A stretch of 50,659 nucleotides of DNA from a virus (Duplodnaviria; Caudoviricetes), in IMG/VR virus record IMGVR_UViG_3300022699_000112, positions 1-50,659 of that record; one strand, written 5' to 3'. This document shows positions 22,358 through 29,012 of the stretch, one piece after another. The notes below the pieces were generated by a model that saw only the letters and a program-made list of their open reading frames with translations, was not told the DNA's origin and made no database searches. A program made the translations under genes and the position numbers. The number at the start of each line of letters is the position of its first letter. Positions within the stretch are counted from its first letter, which is position 1.

Positions 22358-23987
22358 GTAACTTTAGACCTTTCGTTAAAGAATAAGCTAAAATACCCGA
22401 CTGCATTTCTTCAGCATTGCGGGCTTTCAAAATGTGGATACGTCTGTTTATACGGCACCTCTCACCATCTTCCAATTCACAATATCTTAATTGGACCCGT
22501 TCTAGCCAAAAAACATTTTGGACAAATTGTTGATAAGCTGCACCACCTCGCAGGTTGTTCAAATGTGGTGTTGAGTCGTCCTTTTTTGGGTGAGTTACAA
22601 ATACGAGACTCACCTGATACTTATCTGCTACTTTTTTGGCTGCCAGAACAAACTGTTCGTCAGCCTCCCAAATATTCTTGCCCCTGCCCGCTGCCGTAAT
22701 CGGGTCGATAGCTATCACCCTACACCCAGCCCGGCATTGGTCTTTAATCCAGTGCAACATCTCGGCTTGAGTTTGCTGTCTGGTAGGCAAAGCATACAGG
22801 TGTTTGCCGGTGTTGTCAAGGAATTTTTTATTTTTTTCCCACGCCTGTCGAACCTCGTCGGGGTGAGCACGCACCCAATCACACCGAGTGAGGTTAGAAA
22901 GCCCGGTCTGTTGGGCCAACGCCCTCAAAAGGTGGAAAGTTTTATTTTCTTCCAACGCGTACAGAGCAACCCGCTCGCCCCGCTCAAGCCAGAACGCTAG
23001 TGCTTCCGTTAACATAAAGCTCTTTGAACACCCGCCGGTCCCGCAGATAACCGTAATCGCCCCGGGCAACAAGGCTTGTGTATACCGATGTAGCAAGGGC
23101 CACGGCCATTCGACTGCTCGGATTTCCCCGGAGATCATGCCCTCGATGTATTCGCGGACTCCGGCTGCCGGTGTTTCCTTGCAGGCGTTATTGAGGACTT
23201 GCCGGATATCCTCTTTGCCGTGCCCCCGTTCCATGTAATCGACAACATCTTCTTTTTCGGCCAGTCCCAGCCCGCCCGGTTCTACCAAACTGACAGTACA
23301 GAAAGGCAATAATGCCTGTTCCGCATCCGTCGCGTAGTCCCGGCCCGGTTGGTCGTTATCAGGCCAGATCACAACCCGCTTACCGTGCAAAGGCGTCCAG
23401 TCTGTATCTTTGGCCATTGAAGACCCTAGACAGGTTGTTGCCGGAATGCCTAGCTCGTTTAGAGCATCAGCACACTTCTCACCCTCCACTAAGACCACGT
23501 TTTTAGCTTTTTCGATGGTGGGAATCGCATAAAGAGGATATGGGGGGCGGGGACACTCCCGAACAAACCCCCCATAGTACGGAGATACCATTCCGTAGGA
23601 CTTCCTCCGTTTGGTGGTAGCTCCATAACGAGCCTTTACCACCAACAGATTGCCCTCACTATCGGTATATTGGTGTATAGAAACGGGGTTGTGTCCTATC
23701 GCCTCGTCCAGCGTTGGAAATACATCCCGTACTTTTTCTTCTGGTGGCTCCATGCGTAGGGTATCCGCTATATCCAGATTTTCTCTTTTGGCTATTATGT
23801 CGTAATAGTCTAACGTAAGGCGACAAGTGAAGCACCGAAACCGCCAATGACCCCCCGACTCGAAGATGCCAGCCGAGGGATTGCGGTCATTATGGAAAGG
23901 GCAGGTACACTTATAGCCATCAAAAACTGCACCTGCCTGCTCCAAAAGAGAAATCAGTGCTTCTCTATCTTCTATTTTCGAGAACAT
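22323..23987 (-). CDS. Primase-helicase (CHC2 zinc finger, TOPRIM, RecA-like helicase)
   Basis: CPFHNDRNPS...CFTC; VEGEKCAD and WPDND; Walker A GTGGCSKS, IAIDP, VTHPKK, LRGGAA, KARN. Confidence 0.9.
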   Translation of the reverse strand: MFSKIEDREALISLLEQAGAVFDGYKCTCPFHNDRNPSAGIFESGGHWRFRCFTCRLTLDYYDIIAKRENLDIADTLRMEPPEEKVRDVFPTLDEAIGHNPVSIHQYTDSEGNLLVVKARYGATTKRRKSYGMVSPYYGGFVRECPRPPYPLYAIPTIEKAKNVVLVEGEKCADALNELGIPATTCLGSSMAKDTDWTPLHGKRVVIWPDNDQPGRDYATDAEQALLPFCTVSLVEPGGLGLAEKEDVVDYMERGHGKEDIRQVLNNACKETPAAGVREYIEGMISGEIRAVEWPWPLLHRYTQALLPGAITVICGTGGCSKSFMLTEALAFWLERGERVALYALEENKTFHLLRALAQQTGLSNLTRCDWVRAHPDEVRQAWEKNKKFLDNTGKHLYALPTRQQTQAEMLHWIKDQCRAGCRVIAIDPITAAGRGKNIWEADEQFVLAAKKVADKYQVSLVFVTHPKKDDSTPHLNNLRGGAAYQQFVQNVFWLERVQLRYCELEDGERCRINRRIHILKARNAEEMQSGILAYSLTKGLKLHEYGEFKQFLD

Positions 23988-24562
23988 GCTTCAACGTGCT
24001 GAAGGAACTGCTGAATTATGAATTGGTCTATTCCATAAAGTGGACGAATTTCTCGATCTGCCAAGTACTGCCACCACAAACAGACTCTGGCCCTCCTAGT
24101 GAGATTGAACTGGTCAATAGCTCGTCGCAAAGCTAATTTTTCGCCTGTAAGGAAGTCAAATTTATCTGACTCAGAGCAACGGGCTATCCCAATTCGAACT
24201 GTTTTCCCTAGCCGTAGTCGGCATTCTGTATACATTACCTCTTGAGGAACCATTACAAAGGTGATTTCTATTGCATCACTGCCAGTATAAATCTGGCTCC
24301 CCTTAAAATCGTCCTTAGTGCGGACAAAATACCCGAGATTTGTGCAATCTGTTACGCGGCCAAACTCCTCGTCGGATAAGCTCGGAGTGTGCGGTGGGAA
24401 TTGTACCGGCTCCTCCCATGCGATACCGCGCTCCAAAGCAATTAGGCTCCACTCAGAGAAATCCCCTCTGTGGTTACAGGTGAGCATAAACAGGTCCGCA
24501 TCCCCAAGGGAACCATAAAACTTATAAATGTTACCCGGTTCGTGCATTATTTTACCTCTCAA
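23972..24562 (-). CDS. Hypothetical protein
   Basis: First ORF of the leftward replication operon; GIARCSESDKFDFLTGEKLALRRA is a recurrent phage motif. Confidence 0.6.
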   Translation of the reverse strand: MRGKIMHEPGNIYKFYGSLGDADLFMLTCNHRGDFSEWSLIALERGIAWEEPVQFPPHTPSLSDEEFGRVTDCTNLGYFVRTKDDFKGSQIYTGSDAIEITFVMVPQEVMYTECRLRLGKTVRIGIARCSESDKFDFLTGEKLALRRAIDQFNLTRRARVCLWWQYLADREIRPLYGIDQFIIQQFLQHVEACSRK

Positions 24563-24585
24563 AAAAGTTTAAAATTTCAAAATGG

Positions 24586-24640
24586 GCCGGTCTCTCCCGG
24601 CTGTCACGCCTGTTTTTGTACTAAGTCTGGCGTTCGACTC
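24586..24640 (-). ncRNA. Predicted H-type pseudoknot plus hairpin RNA element
   Basis: GAGTC/GACTT stem whose loop ACGCC can pair with downstream GGCGT, followed by GCCGG-GAGAGA-CCGGC. Confidence 0.5.
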
Positions 24641-24641
24641 A

Positions 24642-24743
24642 GTGCCCCGGCAGGACTCGAACCTGCATACACGGGCTGGACTCAAACCAGATTATCCGAT
24701 GCTCTTACCGACAGGCGTCCCTGTGCTTTAGAGCTACGAGGCA
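24642..24743 (-). ncRNA. Atypical tRNA-like RNA with enlarged D and anticodon arms (possible TGA anticodon)
   Basis: Acceptor TGCCTCG/CGGGGCA, TA, D stem GCTC/GAGC, perfect T arm GCAGG-TTCGAGT-CCTGC. Confidence 0.7.
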
Positions 24744-24829
24744 TAAGACGGGGACCGGGCAAAGGAGAATGAAAATCCCGGCCCCCTTGGTTAAAGCATA
24801 AAAAAGTTATCTTTTTTCAGAAAACATCC

Positions 24830-24858
24830 TTGACTTCCTTTAATTGTACTGGTATAAT
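24830..24858 (+). promoter_or_regulatory. Sigma70-type promoter, leaderless transcript predicted
   Basis: TTGACT-N17-TATAAT with TGn extension; ATG 6 nt downstream at 24865. Confidence 0.8.
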
Positions 24859-24864
24859 ACAAAC

Positions 24865-25140
24865 ATGTTCAAAAGTCAAGATAAAAATTTAAAAAATATT
24901 CTCGATCACATCGAAGAAGTCGCCGGTTGGAAGATACGCAAATTCCCCAAGCATGTTCAGGAAGATGCTCTGCATGAAGCGGTAGTTGCGTACCTTGAGG
25001 GAAAAGACATTGTCGAGCATCTTGTCCTTTGGCGTAGAGCGGAACGCCGATACCAAAAGAAAGTGCTGGCTTTTACGCGAGCCAGACCTTTAAAGAGGGA
25101 CAAGGAACAGATCATCGACATTTCCAAGGATTACAAATAA
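24865..25140 (+). CDS. Small putative regulator with a sigma region-2-like segment
   Basis: HVQEDALHEAVVAYLEG resembles sigma region 2; TAATG-coupled to the next gene. Confidence 0.5.
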   Translation: MFKSQDKNLKNILDHIEEVAGWKIRKFPKHVQEDALHEAVVAYLEGKDIVEHLVLWRRAERRYQKKVLAFTRARPLKRDKEQIIDISKDYK

Positions 25141-25592
25141 TGGGTAGGCGAAAGAAAAACAAGACCGTTAATTGGAAGAAACGTGCCGACGAGAATTGGA
25201 GTCTGGCTATCCGGTTGCTCCATCAGAAGTGTGAAATCTGCGGCAAGCCCGGCACTTTCCTTAAATCTGGATACAAAATCGGAGGTTTAAACGCCCATCA
25301 TCTTATCGGCAGGAGTCACTACAAGTTCCGGCATGACCTGAACAACGGCGTTTGCCTGTGTGTTCATTGCCACCACTTCAGAAAAGACCTTAGCCCACAT
25401 GCTGGGTCCATTATTGGTGTAACCAACTTCATCGAGTGGATGGCAAAGAATAAACCGGCACAGTGGGCTTGGTTTCTCCACTATAAGGACTCTCCTAAAG
25501 GTAAACCTGACCTGACCTACGAAGAAATATTTGTTTTTCTGCAATATGCTATTGACAACGGGTTCGTTCCCGACTACAATACCGATTACTAA
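25140..25592 (+). CDS. NinG/HNH-family endonuclease
   Basis: ADENWSLAIR, CEICG, AHHLIGR, NNGVCLCVHCHH. Confidence 0.8.
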   Translation: MGRRKKNKTVNWKKRADENWSLAIRLLHQKCEICGKPGTFLKSGYKIGGLNAHHLIGRSHYKFRHDLNNGVCLCVHCHHFRKDLSPHAGSIIGVTNFIEWMAKNKPAQWAWFLHYKDSPKGKPDLTYEEIFVFLQYAIDNGFVPDYNTDY

Positions 25593-25861
25593 TCCTGAAA
25601 ATGGTCTGTGGTAGACGTTATGGGAAAAAGCTCAAACGAGGTTGTACCTGTCAGCGGGGTACATGAGCCGGGGAAAACTGGATGGCGAAAGCTACTCCCC
25701 TCACATAATATAACTATCGAAGATATAAGGTTGGACAATAGCCATTAACCTAGGGTTATTAACTGATTGCTATATATAAGAGTATATTATTCTTTAATCT
25801 ATATGCTCTAAAATATACATCCAGTAAAGAACTCGGTCTATTTATTTTTAAGGAAAACACT

Positions 25862-26056
25862 ATGGATTCAGGTATTTCAATCACCAACGGATTAAATTTT
25901 GTAGAGTTTTTGGCCCTACTGCTTTTTATTCTGGTGGTGGCTATCTCGGTGGTAGTAGGCATAGTCTTACTTGTAATATTTCTTCCTCTGCTTCTCCTTT
26001 TGGAGGGGGTTGGCAAGATATTTCGGTTTTTCCAGAAAATGTTCTTGACTCGTTGA
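25862..26056 (+). CDS. Small hydrophobic membrane protein
   Basis: AAGGA RBS; ~35-residue hydrophobic stretch. Confidence 0.55.
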   Translation: MDSGISITNGLNFVEFLALLLFILVVAISVVVGIVLLVIFLPLLLLLEGVGKIFRFFQKMFLTR

Positions 26057-26073
26057 GCGAAAGTTGTTATTAT
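26045..26073 (+). promoter_or_regulatory. Sigma70-type promoter, leaderless transcript predicted
   Basis: TTGACT-N17-TATTAT with TGn extension; ATG 7 nt downstream at 26081. Confidence 0.7.
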
Positions 26074-26080
26074 GCCCTCA

Positions 26081-26374
26081 ATGAAAACCTTATTGGAAAA
26101 TGTCGTTACTATAGGCTGGGTAAATCAGGTGACTAAAGAACACAAACTAACACAGGACGAACGTATTAAGGCCCTAGAGCGGGATGTAGATTATCTCGAA
26201 GATAAAGTACACTGCCTTGTACACGGCCACTGGTTTGAAACTATCGGGCTTTATGGTCTGCATCAGGTTGTGGAGCAGTGTCAGACCTGCGGGAAAGAAC
26301 GTAAGAGAAAGCTTAAATGGTACGAACGCAAGGCTATCCGTACTTTGGGTCTACCTTACCGTTGGAGGGAATAA
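26081..26374 (+). CDS. Hypothetical coiled-coil plus Cys/His zinc-binding protein
   Basis: HCLVHGHWF...CQTCGK; start moved to 26081 because ATG 26072 lies inside the -10 box. Confidence 0.6.
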   Translation: MKTLLENVVTIGWVNQVTKEHKLTQDERIKALERDVDYLEDKVHCLVHGHWFETIGLYGLHQVVEQCQTCGKERKRKLKWYERKAIRTLGLPYRWRE

Positions 26375-26433
26375 CTCATGCGTGAAGTGGCTCGGTGGCG
26401 GGTTCGCAGAAAGCCTAAACGAAAGGGATAATA

Positions 26434-27006
26434 ATGTGTTTGACACGACACCACAAACAGGCTTGTTACATTAACCTCGACGATGTTCCAGAGGTATTTA
26501 CGGCATATAAAGTCGTCATAGCTAGGCGTGCCCAGTTCTGGCCTATGATATGGACAACAGAAAGGCCGTTTGAAGAAGTGAACCGTACGCCCGAAGAACC
26601 GGGGTATTTTTGCTTTTTGCTCGCCGAAGACGCGTTGGCAATACAGCGACAAATAGGGTTTATAACGGCAGTGCTGATGGTCACGGTACACAAAGCGGAT
26701 ATTATGCTGATAGGCTGGGACACGCTAAGAGATGGCTCGCCCGTAGTTACGCTAAGCCGACTTGATCTTAATATGAAAGACTTGGGCAATAATGTCTTTC
26801 GTGATCTTAGGACAGACCGGAGCGCCCTCCCCTTGCCAGAATGCTTGGCACGGGAGCTTATGGGTCGCGTAATAGACAATCGGGAGGCATTGAGGCAAGA
26901 GTGGAAAACCACGGCAAAACTAGCTGGTTTTATTAGAGAACCAGAGCCGCCACGCCCCCTATTAGAGCAGTGCCAAGAACACCGCAAATCCACAACAGGG
27001 CATTAA
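26434..27006 (+). CDS. Hypothetical protein
   Basis: 190-aa ORF with AAGGGA RBS. Confidence 0.6.
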   Translation: MCLTRHHKQACYINLDDVPEVFTAYKVVIARRAQFWPMIWTTERPFEEVNRTPEEPGYFCFLLAEDALAIQRQIGFITAVLMVTVHKADIMLIGWDTLRDGSPVVTLSRLDLNMKDLGNNVFRDLRTDRSALPLPECLARELMGRVIDNREALRQEWKTTAKLAGFIREPEPPRPLLEQCQEHRKSTTGH

Positions 27007-28299: not shown

Positions 28300-28401
28300 A
28301 CTTACGCCTGCCACCAAAATATCAAAAAAGCTAATCAAGGTTTGCGTGCTGCCAATGTGTCAAAAAGCACGTCGCGGGAGTTTTCGAGCTTTCTCCCAAA
28401 T

Positions 28402-28485
28402 GGCGGTACAGCGGATACGGCAAGCCGCAGCGGTCTGTAAAACCGTTCCCTGACCGGTGTGTGGGTTCGACTCCCTCTGCCGCCA
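28402..28485 (+). tRNA. tRNA-Tyr(GTA), CCA not encoded
   Basis: Acceptor GGCGGTA/TGCCGCC plus discriminator A; D stem GCGG/CCGC; anticodon arm GCGGT-CTGTAAA-ACCGT; long variable region; GGG-TTCGACT-CCC. Confidence 0.88.
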
Positions 28486-28528
28486 GAGTTCTTTTAAAAG
28501 TTGATATGCCTTTCTTATATGGGGGAAA

Positions 28529-28571: not shown

Positions 28572-29012
28572 TTAGGAAAAAAACCGGTTAATATCTCCTG
28601 TAAAGTATACTGAATATGTGTTGTCGTGATCTTGCTGTTCCAACACTTCCATTTCACATATCCCCCCGGCACCGAGACTTAGCGTGTACCAGTAGCTCGG
28701 GTATCTGATAGGGGTCAGTGTGGCCGTATAAATCGGGTCTAATGAGACACTTAAAGCAGAGCCGACCTCGTAGACAGTGTTCATACCCAGCGATTTAGCC
28801 GCTGAAATCTGCCGTTGGAGTTCGACCCCCAGAGCTTCGGGATTGCCCTTGGTCCTGACCGCAAGTTCTATACAATCCGTATCGTGTTCCAGCATGGATA
28901 CCACACGAATCATCGCGGATACCCCTTTTGGTTCCTTTACTTGAGGATGCAGTTCTCGTATCAGGGCTTCCAGTGATGTTAGTCGTTGCAGAATGTCCCT
29001 GTTTGAGTCCAT
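28572..29012 (-). CDS. Hypothetical protein
   Basis: 146-aa ORF, last in the leftward block; GAGG RBS. Confidence 0.6.
   Translation of the reverse strand: MDSNRDILQRLTSLEALIRELHPQVKEPKGVSAMIRVVSMLEHDTDCIELAVRTKGNPEALGVELQRQISAAKSLGMNTVYEVGSALSVSLDPIYTATLTPIRYPSYWYTLSLGAGGICEMEVLEQQDHDNTYSVYFTGDINRFFS

Follow-up and report, generated by a model that had tools for sequence, protein, structure and literature searches.

The virus record IMGVR_UViG_3300022699_000112 (Duplodnaviria; Caudoviricetes), 50,659 base pairs (bp) long and analysed here as a whole (the window), carries on its minus strand, at positions 24642 to 24743, an element derived from a transfer RNA (tRNA). Our tentative reading, which we hold to be the most probable single explanation, is that the element is an expressed, non-decoding mimic of the top half of a tRNA. 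The reading starts from what was observed, namely the anatomy of the element, its tRNA ancestry, the copies of the T arm found inside it, its genomic position and the occurrence of similar anticodon-less genes in other phages. The element is very unlikely to decode.

Anatomy of the element

An earlier note on this DNA, made from the letters alone, had described a minus-strand tRNA-like element of 102 nucleotides (nt) with acceptor stem, U8-A9, D stem and T arm. Reading of the sequence and folding with RNAfold agreed on this description, the fold returning the cloverleaf so described. The D loop of 26 nt with its hairpin ACAGG-GACG-CCTGT and the anticodon region ending in CTGG-TTTGAGT-CCAG, both reported in the same note, were also found as stated. 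The parts of the element are listed below.

24642..24743, minus strand: whole tRNA-derived element, 102 nt including the discriminator C at 24642 (from sequence and fold).
24737..24743, minus strand: 5' strand of the acceptor stem, UGCCUCG, which pairs with CGGGGCA at 24643-24649.
24701..24734, minus strand: D arm, with the stem GCUC (24734-24731) / GAGC (24704-24701), pair probability 0.98-0.99.
24711..24724, minus strand: D-loop hairpin ACAGG-GACG-CCUGU, a perfect 5-bp stem upstream of G18G19, pair probability 0.97-1.0.
24667..24700, minus strand: abnormal anticodon and variable region, 34 nt, with two alternative folds.
24676..24690, minus strand: T-arm-like hairpin CUGG-UUUGAGU-CCAG at the anticodon position (from fold and sequence comparison).
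24650..24666, minus strand: canonical T arm GCAGG-UUCGAGU-CCUGC, pair probability 0.77.

The acceptor stem consists of 7 bp, six Watson-Crick and one U-G, with pair probabilities of 0.72-1.0; U8-A9 is present, and the 26-nt D loop terminates in CGGUAA, which holds G18G19. All the pairs of the five main helices (25/25) are standard, the three CGG/CCG pairs of the anticodon region having been counted apart as poorly supported. In its best fold this region forms the 3-bp CGG/CCG helix, an internal loop and a 4-bp CUGG/CCAG helix closed by a 7-nt loop, with helix probabilities of 0.41-0.54; a rival fold, a 5-bp mini-stem UCGGA-UAA-UCUGG with a 3-nt loop, showed a probability of 0.19-0.25.

The core features of a canonical tRNA are all present, that is a 7-bp acceptor stem, U8, a D stem of 3-4 bp, G18G19, a 5-bp T stem and a T loop of the type UUCRANY. 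The canonical D loop measures about 7-11 nt, against 26 nt with an internal 5-bp hairpin in the element, and no 5-bp stem with a 7-nt loop stands directly after position 26. The lower half of the element is not decoding-competent as folded, because the D loop has 26 nt and the anticodon region is either too long by about 3 bp and an internal loop or reduced to a stub with a 3-nt loop. The sequence 3' of the discriminator C is UGAG, and the earlier note was thus right that no CCA is encoded; the point is uninformative, since a genuine phage tRNA-Tyr at 28401-28486 of the window also lacks an encoded CCA.

Response of tRNA detectors

Searches with ARAGORN and with the Rfam tRNA model missed the element, which bears out its earlier description as atypical. 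The sole ARAGORN call in the window was tRNA-Tyr 28401-28486, with a score of 111.4; at the element the program was silent at default, 80% and 70% thresholds, save for one chimeric call. Rfam at gathering thresholds missed the element and found only the tRNA-Tyr in the window, and the Rfam tRNA model RF00005 gave no match at the element even at expectation values (E) up to 10. The single overlapping Rfam match at E up to 10 was to tRNA-Sec (RF01852), with 15.9 bits and E=3.8 against a gathering threshold of 47 bits. Identity as tRNA-Sec was rejected, the score lying below gathering and the element holding no UCA anticodon. A transfer-messenger RNA (tmRNA) was likewise discarded, as the ARAGORN tmRNA search of the window gave none.

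The chimeric call, obtained with introns allowed at 80% thresholds, was a 'tRNA-Thr' at 24642-26969 with a 2247-nt intron and a score of 99.3. It was rejected because its 5' half offers a weak D arm and a wobble-rich acceptor, and because the same run returned 105 calls across the window. An intron-containing tRNA was also dismissed: the inserts measure about 17 and 8-15 nt and show no bulge-helix-bulge (3-nt bulge, 4-bp helix, 3-nt bulge), and a group I intron would take at least 200 nt. The bacterial-type signals of the phage bear on the archaeal-intron reading too. A second degenerate tRNA was considered at 28762-28840, where ARAGORN gave a sub-threshold 'tta' call (91.8), and was abandoned, Rfam returning nothing there at E up to 10.

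The tRNA core and its ancestry

In order to evaluate the tRNA core, 14-20 nt of the D loop and 8-21 nt of the anticodon region were deleted in all 12,005 combinations and the variants were submitted to ARAGORN at default settings. As many as 1,972 of the 12,005 were called as tRNAs, and the best variant, with about 17 nt and 8 nt removed, scored 110.8, against 111.4 for the tRNA-Tyr. In the control, where 1,316 random segments of the window underwent these 12,005 deletions, ARAGORN made 0 calls. When the window was scanned for a loose skeleton (7/7 acceptor pairs, a 4-bp D stem, a 5-bp T stem and the T-loop motif), the element was the only site, and any match appeared in 6 of 100 dinucleotide shuffles. 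A covariance model built on the single sequence of the element matched in the window only the element itself (133.6 bits) and the tRNA-Tyr (18.7 bits). The tRNA core is beyond chance.

Since the deletion scan and its control gave 1,972 calls against none, and since the top half matches ordinary phage tRNAs, tRNA ancestry is secure. A pattern scan for the T arm and the 3' acceptor strand returned four viral loci. One of them, L355, is a tRNA array whose Arg(CCT), Lys(CTT), Ile(GAT) and Asn(GTT) genes, among others, start with U1 and have the GCAGG T stem in common. Its tRNA-Arg(CCT) has its first 13 nt identical to those of the element (acceptor 5' strand, U8A9 and start of the D stem), matches 22 of the 24 bases of T arm and 3' acceptor strand and reaches 38.4 bits with the element model; six tRNAs of the array score 31-38 bits. 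The element thus descends from an ordinary phage tRNA scaffold with U1-A72 and a GCAGG T stem, which points to no particular isotype for the parent. The L355-type tRNAs are 72-77 nt long, canonical, called by ARAGORN at 111-128 and arranged in an array, whereas the element stands alone, has discriminator C, carries a hairpin in a D loop of 26 nt and lacks a canonical anticodon arm.

The longest blastn match of the element was to a 68-nt tRNA of Microbacterium phage Finny (L317, MK894432.1, 28857-28924), which carries GG-UUUGAGU-CC at the anticodon position. Five further Microbacterium phage records hold the Finny tRNA at 98.5% identity over the tRNA only, with unalignable flanks. Such 68-nt tRNAs are annotated as Thr in one record and as Ser in five, have an anticodon hairpin that resembles their own T arm and are uncalled by ARAGORN at default settings. 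A 72-nt viral tRNA (L335), called by ARAGORN at 106.9, likewise has GG-UUUGAGU-CC at its anticodon position.

These matches bear on the possibility that the element is an unusual but working tRNA, whose UUUGAGU loop (anticodon UGA) would read UCA and whose extra hairpins would be tolerated. Besides the hairpin shared with L335 and with the conserved Microbacterium phage tRNA, this explanation can point to the 7-nt loop with U33 and a purine at 37 and to the deletion variants, 349 of the 1,972 called being tRNA(tga), the best one at 110.8 included. We consider it very improbable, as the anticodon would be moved away from the elbow, relative to any standard tRNA, by about 3 bp and a 5x1 internal loop, on a helix with a probability of only 0.4-0.5, and both RF00005 at E up to 10 and ARAGORN at 70% thresholds fail to recognize it. 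Moreover, the element has no long variable arm for bacterial SerRS, and G37 after A36 is atypical.

Copies of the T arm within the element

The hairpin at the anticodon position differs from the T arm of the element at 3 of 15 bases, and two of the three differences constitute a compensatory flip from a U-A to an A-U pair in the stem. With up to 3 mismatches allowed, it is the only match to the T arm in the window; chance predicts about one over both strands of the whole window. A repeat finder reported T arm and anticodon hairpin as a 15-nt direct repeat, 87% identical with 25-nt spacing; Tandem Repeats Finder returned no array at score 30 over 24560-24860. The stem CAGG/CCUG of the D-loop hairpin is identical to the T stem, and 3 of the 8 hairpins of the type CWGG-N4-7-CCWG in the window fall within the 102 nt of the element. 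A further copy lies just outside it.

24632..24640, minus strand: inverted partial copy of the T arm in the 3' trailer, complementary to the T-loop region at 8 of 9 positions.

These copies could be scars of duplication or template switching, or they could result from a deliberate multiplication of the T-arm module; if they arose by duplication, the compensatory flip favours the latter. Duplication itself is not certain, because the same GG-UUUGAGU-CC hairpin fills the anticodon position in two other viral tRNAs.

Genomic setting

The window corresponds to the whole virus record, has direct terminal repeats and is rated 100% complete. Its genes include a T7-type head-to-tail connector, capsid, large terminase, RecA, HU, family A DNA polymerase, exonuclease and primase/helicase, and no integrase or recombinase was found among the 76 open reading frames (ORFs) scanned; the phage is a complete, lytic-type one. 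It has few relatives: its DNA polymerase gave one weak match among 50,697 deposited phage records and none in IMG/VR. The features that surround the element on the same strand are given below.

24843..24872, minus strand: sigma-70-like promoter candidate TTGAAC-18-TACAAT (9/12), identified by consensus match only.
24750..24786, minus strand: leader hairpin of 10 bp, G+C-rich, which ends 6 nt before the element.
24561..24601, minus strand: hairpin GCCGG-GAGAGA-CCGGC with a U-rich tract, having the look of a weak terminator or attenuator and failing the criteria of the scan.
23972..24547, minus strand: ORF191, 191 amino acids (aa), directly downstream of the element and preceded by GAGAGG, which resembles a ribosome-binding site.

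The promoter candidate would place the start some 90 nt before the element; of 200 shuffles of the 272-nt leader, 199 were less structured than the leader itself (z=-2.62). ORF191 is followed by the genes for primase/helicase, exonuclease, pyrophosphatase and polymerase, which confirmed the earlier placement of the element at the head of the replication operon. ORF191 is an orphan, with no relative in IMG/VR and only itself among 5.8 billion protein clusters searched at near lengths. Its AlphaFold2 model, calculated with no alignment, reached a mean pLDDT of 41.5, too poor for a fold search, and a protein atlas gave for the C-terminal half a below-threshold lead to the Rv2632c-like (dsRBD-like) fold, which is common in phages.

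Given this position, the element could be a cis-acting signal for RNase P or 3'-end processing, which would remove the leader and set the 5' end of the ORF191-primase-polymerase mRNA, the released RNA having no role. The element does separate the promoter-like site from the operon's first ORF. No terminator that passes the scan's criteria stands behind it, so that co-transcription with the operon is likely, and the parts needed by RNase P (acceptor/T minihelix and elbow) are the intact ones. We regard such a signal as quite improbable, as the nearest relative found, L237, runs the homologous operon without the element and both the D-loop hairpin and the extra T-arm copies would be left unexplained.

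On the opposite strand, back to back with the minus-strand candidate, lies a promoter that is the stronger of the two. This is a near-consensus, extended -10 promoter at 24830-24867 (TTGACT-17-TATAAT with TG, 11/12), which ends 6 nt before the in-frame ATG at 24865 of a small plus-strand ORF and suggests that the mRNA of this ORF may be leaderless. A gene for an HNH endonuclease follows at 25140-25592 (plus strand), about 400 bp from the element. A protein-coding reading of the plus strand at the element itself was rejected; the ORF in question, 100 aa at 24470-24772, matches nothing in PHROG and lies partly over the start of ORF191.

An attachment site for phage integration (attP) was discarded too, with no integrase or recombinase in the 76 ORFs and with direct terminal repeats present. 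More generally, the element might act at the DNA level between the divergent promoters, for instance as an origin of replication or as a site for recombination or for an endonuclease, its likeness to a tRNA being mere ancestry. Its location in a divergent intergenic region heading the replication module, 400 bp from the HNH gene, and its direct and inverted repeats would suit such a role. Against it, the T arm accounts for all the repeats, of which there are only two direct ones and a partial inverted one; no integrase was found in the window, and L237 has the same HNH gene without the element. Of the explanations examined, this one is scarcely credible.

Relatives of the phage

A metagenome scan with the primase returned L237, 58% identical over the full length, and about fifteen loci at 33-39% identity; in IMG/VR the same protein matched 80 loci at 28-49%. 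In L237, the nearest relative found, gene order is preserved from the HNH gene through the small plus-strand ORF and the primase to the exonuclease and beyond, and the covariance model of the element found nothing at its locus. Among the distant relatives, 7 of 22 loci carry assorted ordinary tRNAs nearby, eight in all; one of these, the tRNA-Met of L248, shares the strand of the primase and precedes it by 2 kb. According to the earlier note, a pseudogene would be indicated by relatives with a normal tRNA at this site. The outcome is mixed: L237 has neither a tRNA nor anything tRNA-like there, and ordinary tRNAs do occur in the vicinity in distant relatives. Since L237 is without the element and the distant relatives bear assorted ordinary tRNAs, the element is an accessory, lineage-specific feature.

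Similar tRNA-shaped genes in other phages

Scans for a tRNA-type D stem around a D loop of at least 17 nt returned 18 distinct tRNA-shaped sequences in 12 families, sixteen of the sequences coming from viral contigs, one from a locus of a Patescibacteria metagenome-assembled genome (MAG) and one from the window. Since the patterns demanded that D stem, T loop and acceptor stem be intact, the integrity of these parts in the 18 sequences is not independent evidence. A non-canonical anticodon region, consisting of mini-hairpins or long and irregular, was observed in 14 of the 18 sequences and in 10 of the 12 families, window included. In the other four sequences, which form two families, the anticodon arm is canonical and the hairpin comes after G18G19; three are Lys-UUU genes and the fourth has a UCC loop. 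The element fits a grouping of our own, made for this analysis and unpublished, defined by an intact acceptor/T/D-stem scaffold, a D-loop insert before G18G19 and a non-canonical anticodon region. ARAGORN misses most of the 18, though many lie within tRNA arrays. The window-type pattern gave two matches in 596 Gb of cellular genomes, of which one is real; this (L337, Patescibacteria MAG contig JALNZW010000019.1, 1250-1344) is a tRNA-shaped sequence whose D loop measures 31 nt and whose 'anticodon' loop measures 5 nt.

The Lys-like genes, located in the tRNA arrays of L142, L166 and L218, resemble tRNA-Lys(UUU), with a normal anticodon arm and a GCC-NNNN-GGC hairpin in the D loop after G18G19. 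They are uncalled by ARAGORN, and the L218 copy adjoins a canonical tRNA-Lys(UUU). Internal tandem duplications of the D-stem/anticodon-arm segment were seen in tRNA genes of L148, L162, L235 and L176/L227, with a copy number that varies among related contigs.

One family, the GGGGAAG / G3:U70 family, was searched with a pattern fixing the last (3') 26 nt. It comprises 18 contigs (L154, L211 and L339-L354) and 16 distinct sequences of 71-136 nt, 13 of which begin GGGGAAGUAGCU, keeping the 5' acceptor strand and the D stem. The T arm is constant, and the acceptor stem carries G3:U70 and A73, the alanine identity set. The D loop is either standard or contains a hairpin with differing stems (GGA/UCC, GAG/CUC, GC/GC). 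The anticodon region is hypervariable: it may be a tetraloop stub, a Lys-like CUUUUAA loop or a structured insert of 40-70 nt, and a compensatory change between L344 and L351 was detected in the long inserts. The Rfam tRNA model accepts the long-insert members L339, L344, L351 and L354 at 39.9-47.9 bits and L347, L348, L349, L350 and L352 at 33-54 bits, and rejects L154, L211 and L345; no tmRNA was called in the loci of the family. The genes adjoin ordinary tRNA genes and ARAGORN misses most of them. This family shows that phages maintain tRNA top halves with free-running bottom halves and that anticodon-less scaffolds persist through divergence. It does not show the element to belong to it by descent.

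Inspection of the neighbouring genes of twelve viral and MAG loci with such elements revealed no common partner protein. With the window counted as the thirteenth, 5 of 13 loci lie in replication or recombination modules, including the window and L082, whose tRNA-like sequence also stands upstream of a primase, and 4 of 13 have an HNH gene nearby. In the window and in L138, L202 and L154 the HNH gene is within about 0.4-1.3 kb of the tRNA-like element; the proximity may only reflect the abundance of HNH genes in phages.

Taken more broadly, these genes might represent an unrecognised and widespread class of phage RNAs, in which tRNA top halves would be kept under selection, the D loop would bear a hairpin and the anticodon arm would be replaced by mini-hairpins, T-arm copies or structured inserts. 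Its members would be processed, CCA-tailed and outside translation, serving as decoys or carriers for host proteins that bind the acceptor end or the elbow, such as immune nucleases aimed at the tRNA tail or the acceptor, or nucleotidyltransferases. We consider a class of this breadth unlikely. In open-access full texts, no account was found of tRNA-like phage genes that have a hairpin in the D loop or an anticodon arm resembling a T arm.

Proposed role of the element and the relic alternative

For the element itself, we infer transcription, processing, stability and a decoy role. The upper half (acceptor stem, T arm, D stem and the elbow formed by G18G19 and T loop) would have been retained from an ordinary phage tRNA, and the lower half rebuilt by insertion of a hairpin in the D loop before G18G19 and by a T-arm copy that replaces or overlays the anticodon arm. 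Transcription would proceed from the minus-strand promoter, with the element first in the replication-operon transcript. RNase P would cut at 24743, while trimming near 24642 and CCA addition would complete the 3' end, and a stable RNA of about 105 nt, unusable by the ribosome, would accumulate. It would present the top half of a tRNA (acceptor end, T arm and elbow) to a tRNA-binding protein, the most plausible target being a host tRNA-targeting defence or a tRNA-processing enzyme, which could be soaked up without disturbing translation. The earlier note had proposed a decoy for anticodon nucleases among other roles. This target is not favoured, as no part of the element is less tRNA-like or less well defined than the anticodon region and the half made of acceptor, T arm and elbow is the intact one.

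Several results weigh against a functional mimic. The folding energy of the whole element is unexceptional (z = -1.25; 24 of 200 shuffles fold as well), the stability of the D-loop hairpin is marginal (p = 0.066, 5000 shuffles) and the pairing of the anticodon region is at chance level (p = 0.52, 5000 shuffles). The extra pairings are not clearly beyond chance, and the earlier argument that both expansions are paired and hence not products of decay is weak. The position after the D stem is T and not A, and A14 is nearly universal in tRNAs. The scar reading of the T-arm copies is equally possible. In L237, about 300 bp with a 64-codon ORF replace some 860 bp comprising leader, element and ORF191. 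The other tRNA-shaped genes are best regarded as structural analogues, their homology to the element not being demonstrated.

The homologue search suggested in the earlier note, with covariation in view, came back empty. IMG/VR DNA-pattern scans returned no homologue, four of the six scans being apt for close relatives and the phage's own or a near-identical record possibly lying outside them; blastn against the 50,697 phage records gave T-arm-level matches only, with 0 of 1126 records covering 80% of the query. There is no support from covariation or conservation for this particular element: its helices are intact, and no homologues were found on which selection could be measured.

The same results feed the view that the element is a recently scrambled tRNA relic. 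A few local duplications or template switches would have produced the D-loop palindrome, the T-arm copy and the inverted copy in the trailer, leaving a functionless sequence that is not yet decayed or deleted. We rate this as nearly as likely as the mimic. As expected of a relic, the element combines tRNA ancestry with lost decoding features. It is a singleton, missing from L237 and with no homologue found, in a phage group whose tRNA genes are fluid (relatives differ in the single tRNAs that they carry, 8 tRNAs in 7 of 22 loci). It contains three CWGG/CCWG hairpins, a direct repeat at 25-nt spacing and an inverted copy, its anticodon region has an ambiguous ensemble with no excess of structure, and the tRNA genes of L148, L162 and L235 exhibit plain internal tandem duplications of varying copy number. 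On the other hand, 25/25 intact pairs and compensatory stem differences are unexpected under neutral drift to 20% divergence, phage genomes are compact and the element lies within a strongly structured, promoter-proximal leader. In addition, 10 of the 12 families examined share the combination of intact top half, D-loop hairpin and non-decoding anticodon region, and in at least one family it has persisted through divergence. We therefore keep the non-decoding top-half mimic as our tentative reading.

Several bacterial defence systems attack tRNAs. If functional, the element would be a tRNA mimic made by a phage for a non-decoding purpose, one of many missed by standard tRNA finders, and would belong to a hidden layer in the conflict between phages and hosts over tRNAs. 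It would also be a natural counterpart to the engineered 'tRNA scaffold' used for RNA stabilisation in bacteria. If a relic, it would illustrate the death of a phage tRNA gene by local duplication of its own arms and would warn against taking a neat cloverleaf with paired inserts as proof of selection.

Comparison with known systems

Stable tRNA-like RNAs encoded by a phage have a precedent in the species 1 and 2 RNAs of phage T4, whose function is unknown. The tRNA-like domain of tmRNA also keeps the acceptor/T-arm half, the rest being replaced or enlarged. The element differs from tmRNA in having no G3:U70 and in being far too short for a tag reading frame.

In plant mitochondria, t-elements are tRNA-like folds in mRNA precursors that define mRNA ends, presumably via tRNA-processing enzymes (PMC1920247). 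By analogy, they would match the cis-processing reading of the phage element in its operon leader. T-elements are organellar and are not known to have extra D-loop or T-arm-like hairpins. For the phage element, only its position in the leader supports a t-element-like nature.

Partial or non-canonical tRNA genes and fragments of prokaryotes are tRNA-derived and arise from the activity of genetic elements (PMC9897764), which supports the relic reading. They are mostly truncated, located at integration sites and wrongly called as tRNAs by tRNAscan-SE (PMC9897764). The element, in contrast, has full-length ends and is enlarged; its phage is of lytic type, with no integrase found, and tRNA detectors overlook the element instead of over-calling it.

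Finally, the Bacillus cereus pseudo-tRNA 'tRNA-Other' reportedly folds into a cloverleaf of normal size. It is tRNA-derived and has no role in translation, yet exerts an effect on the cell (PMC3399842). It differs from the phage element in being chromosomal and in flanking a genomic island, and provides a precedent for non-decoding tRNA-like regulators in bacteria.

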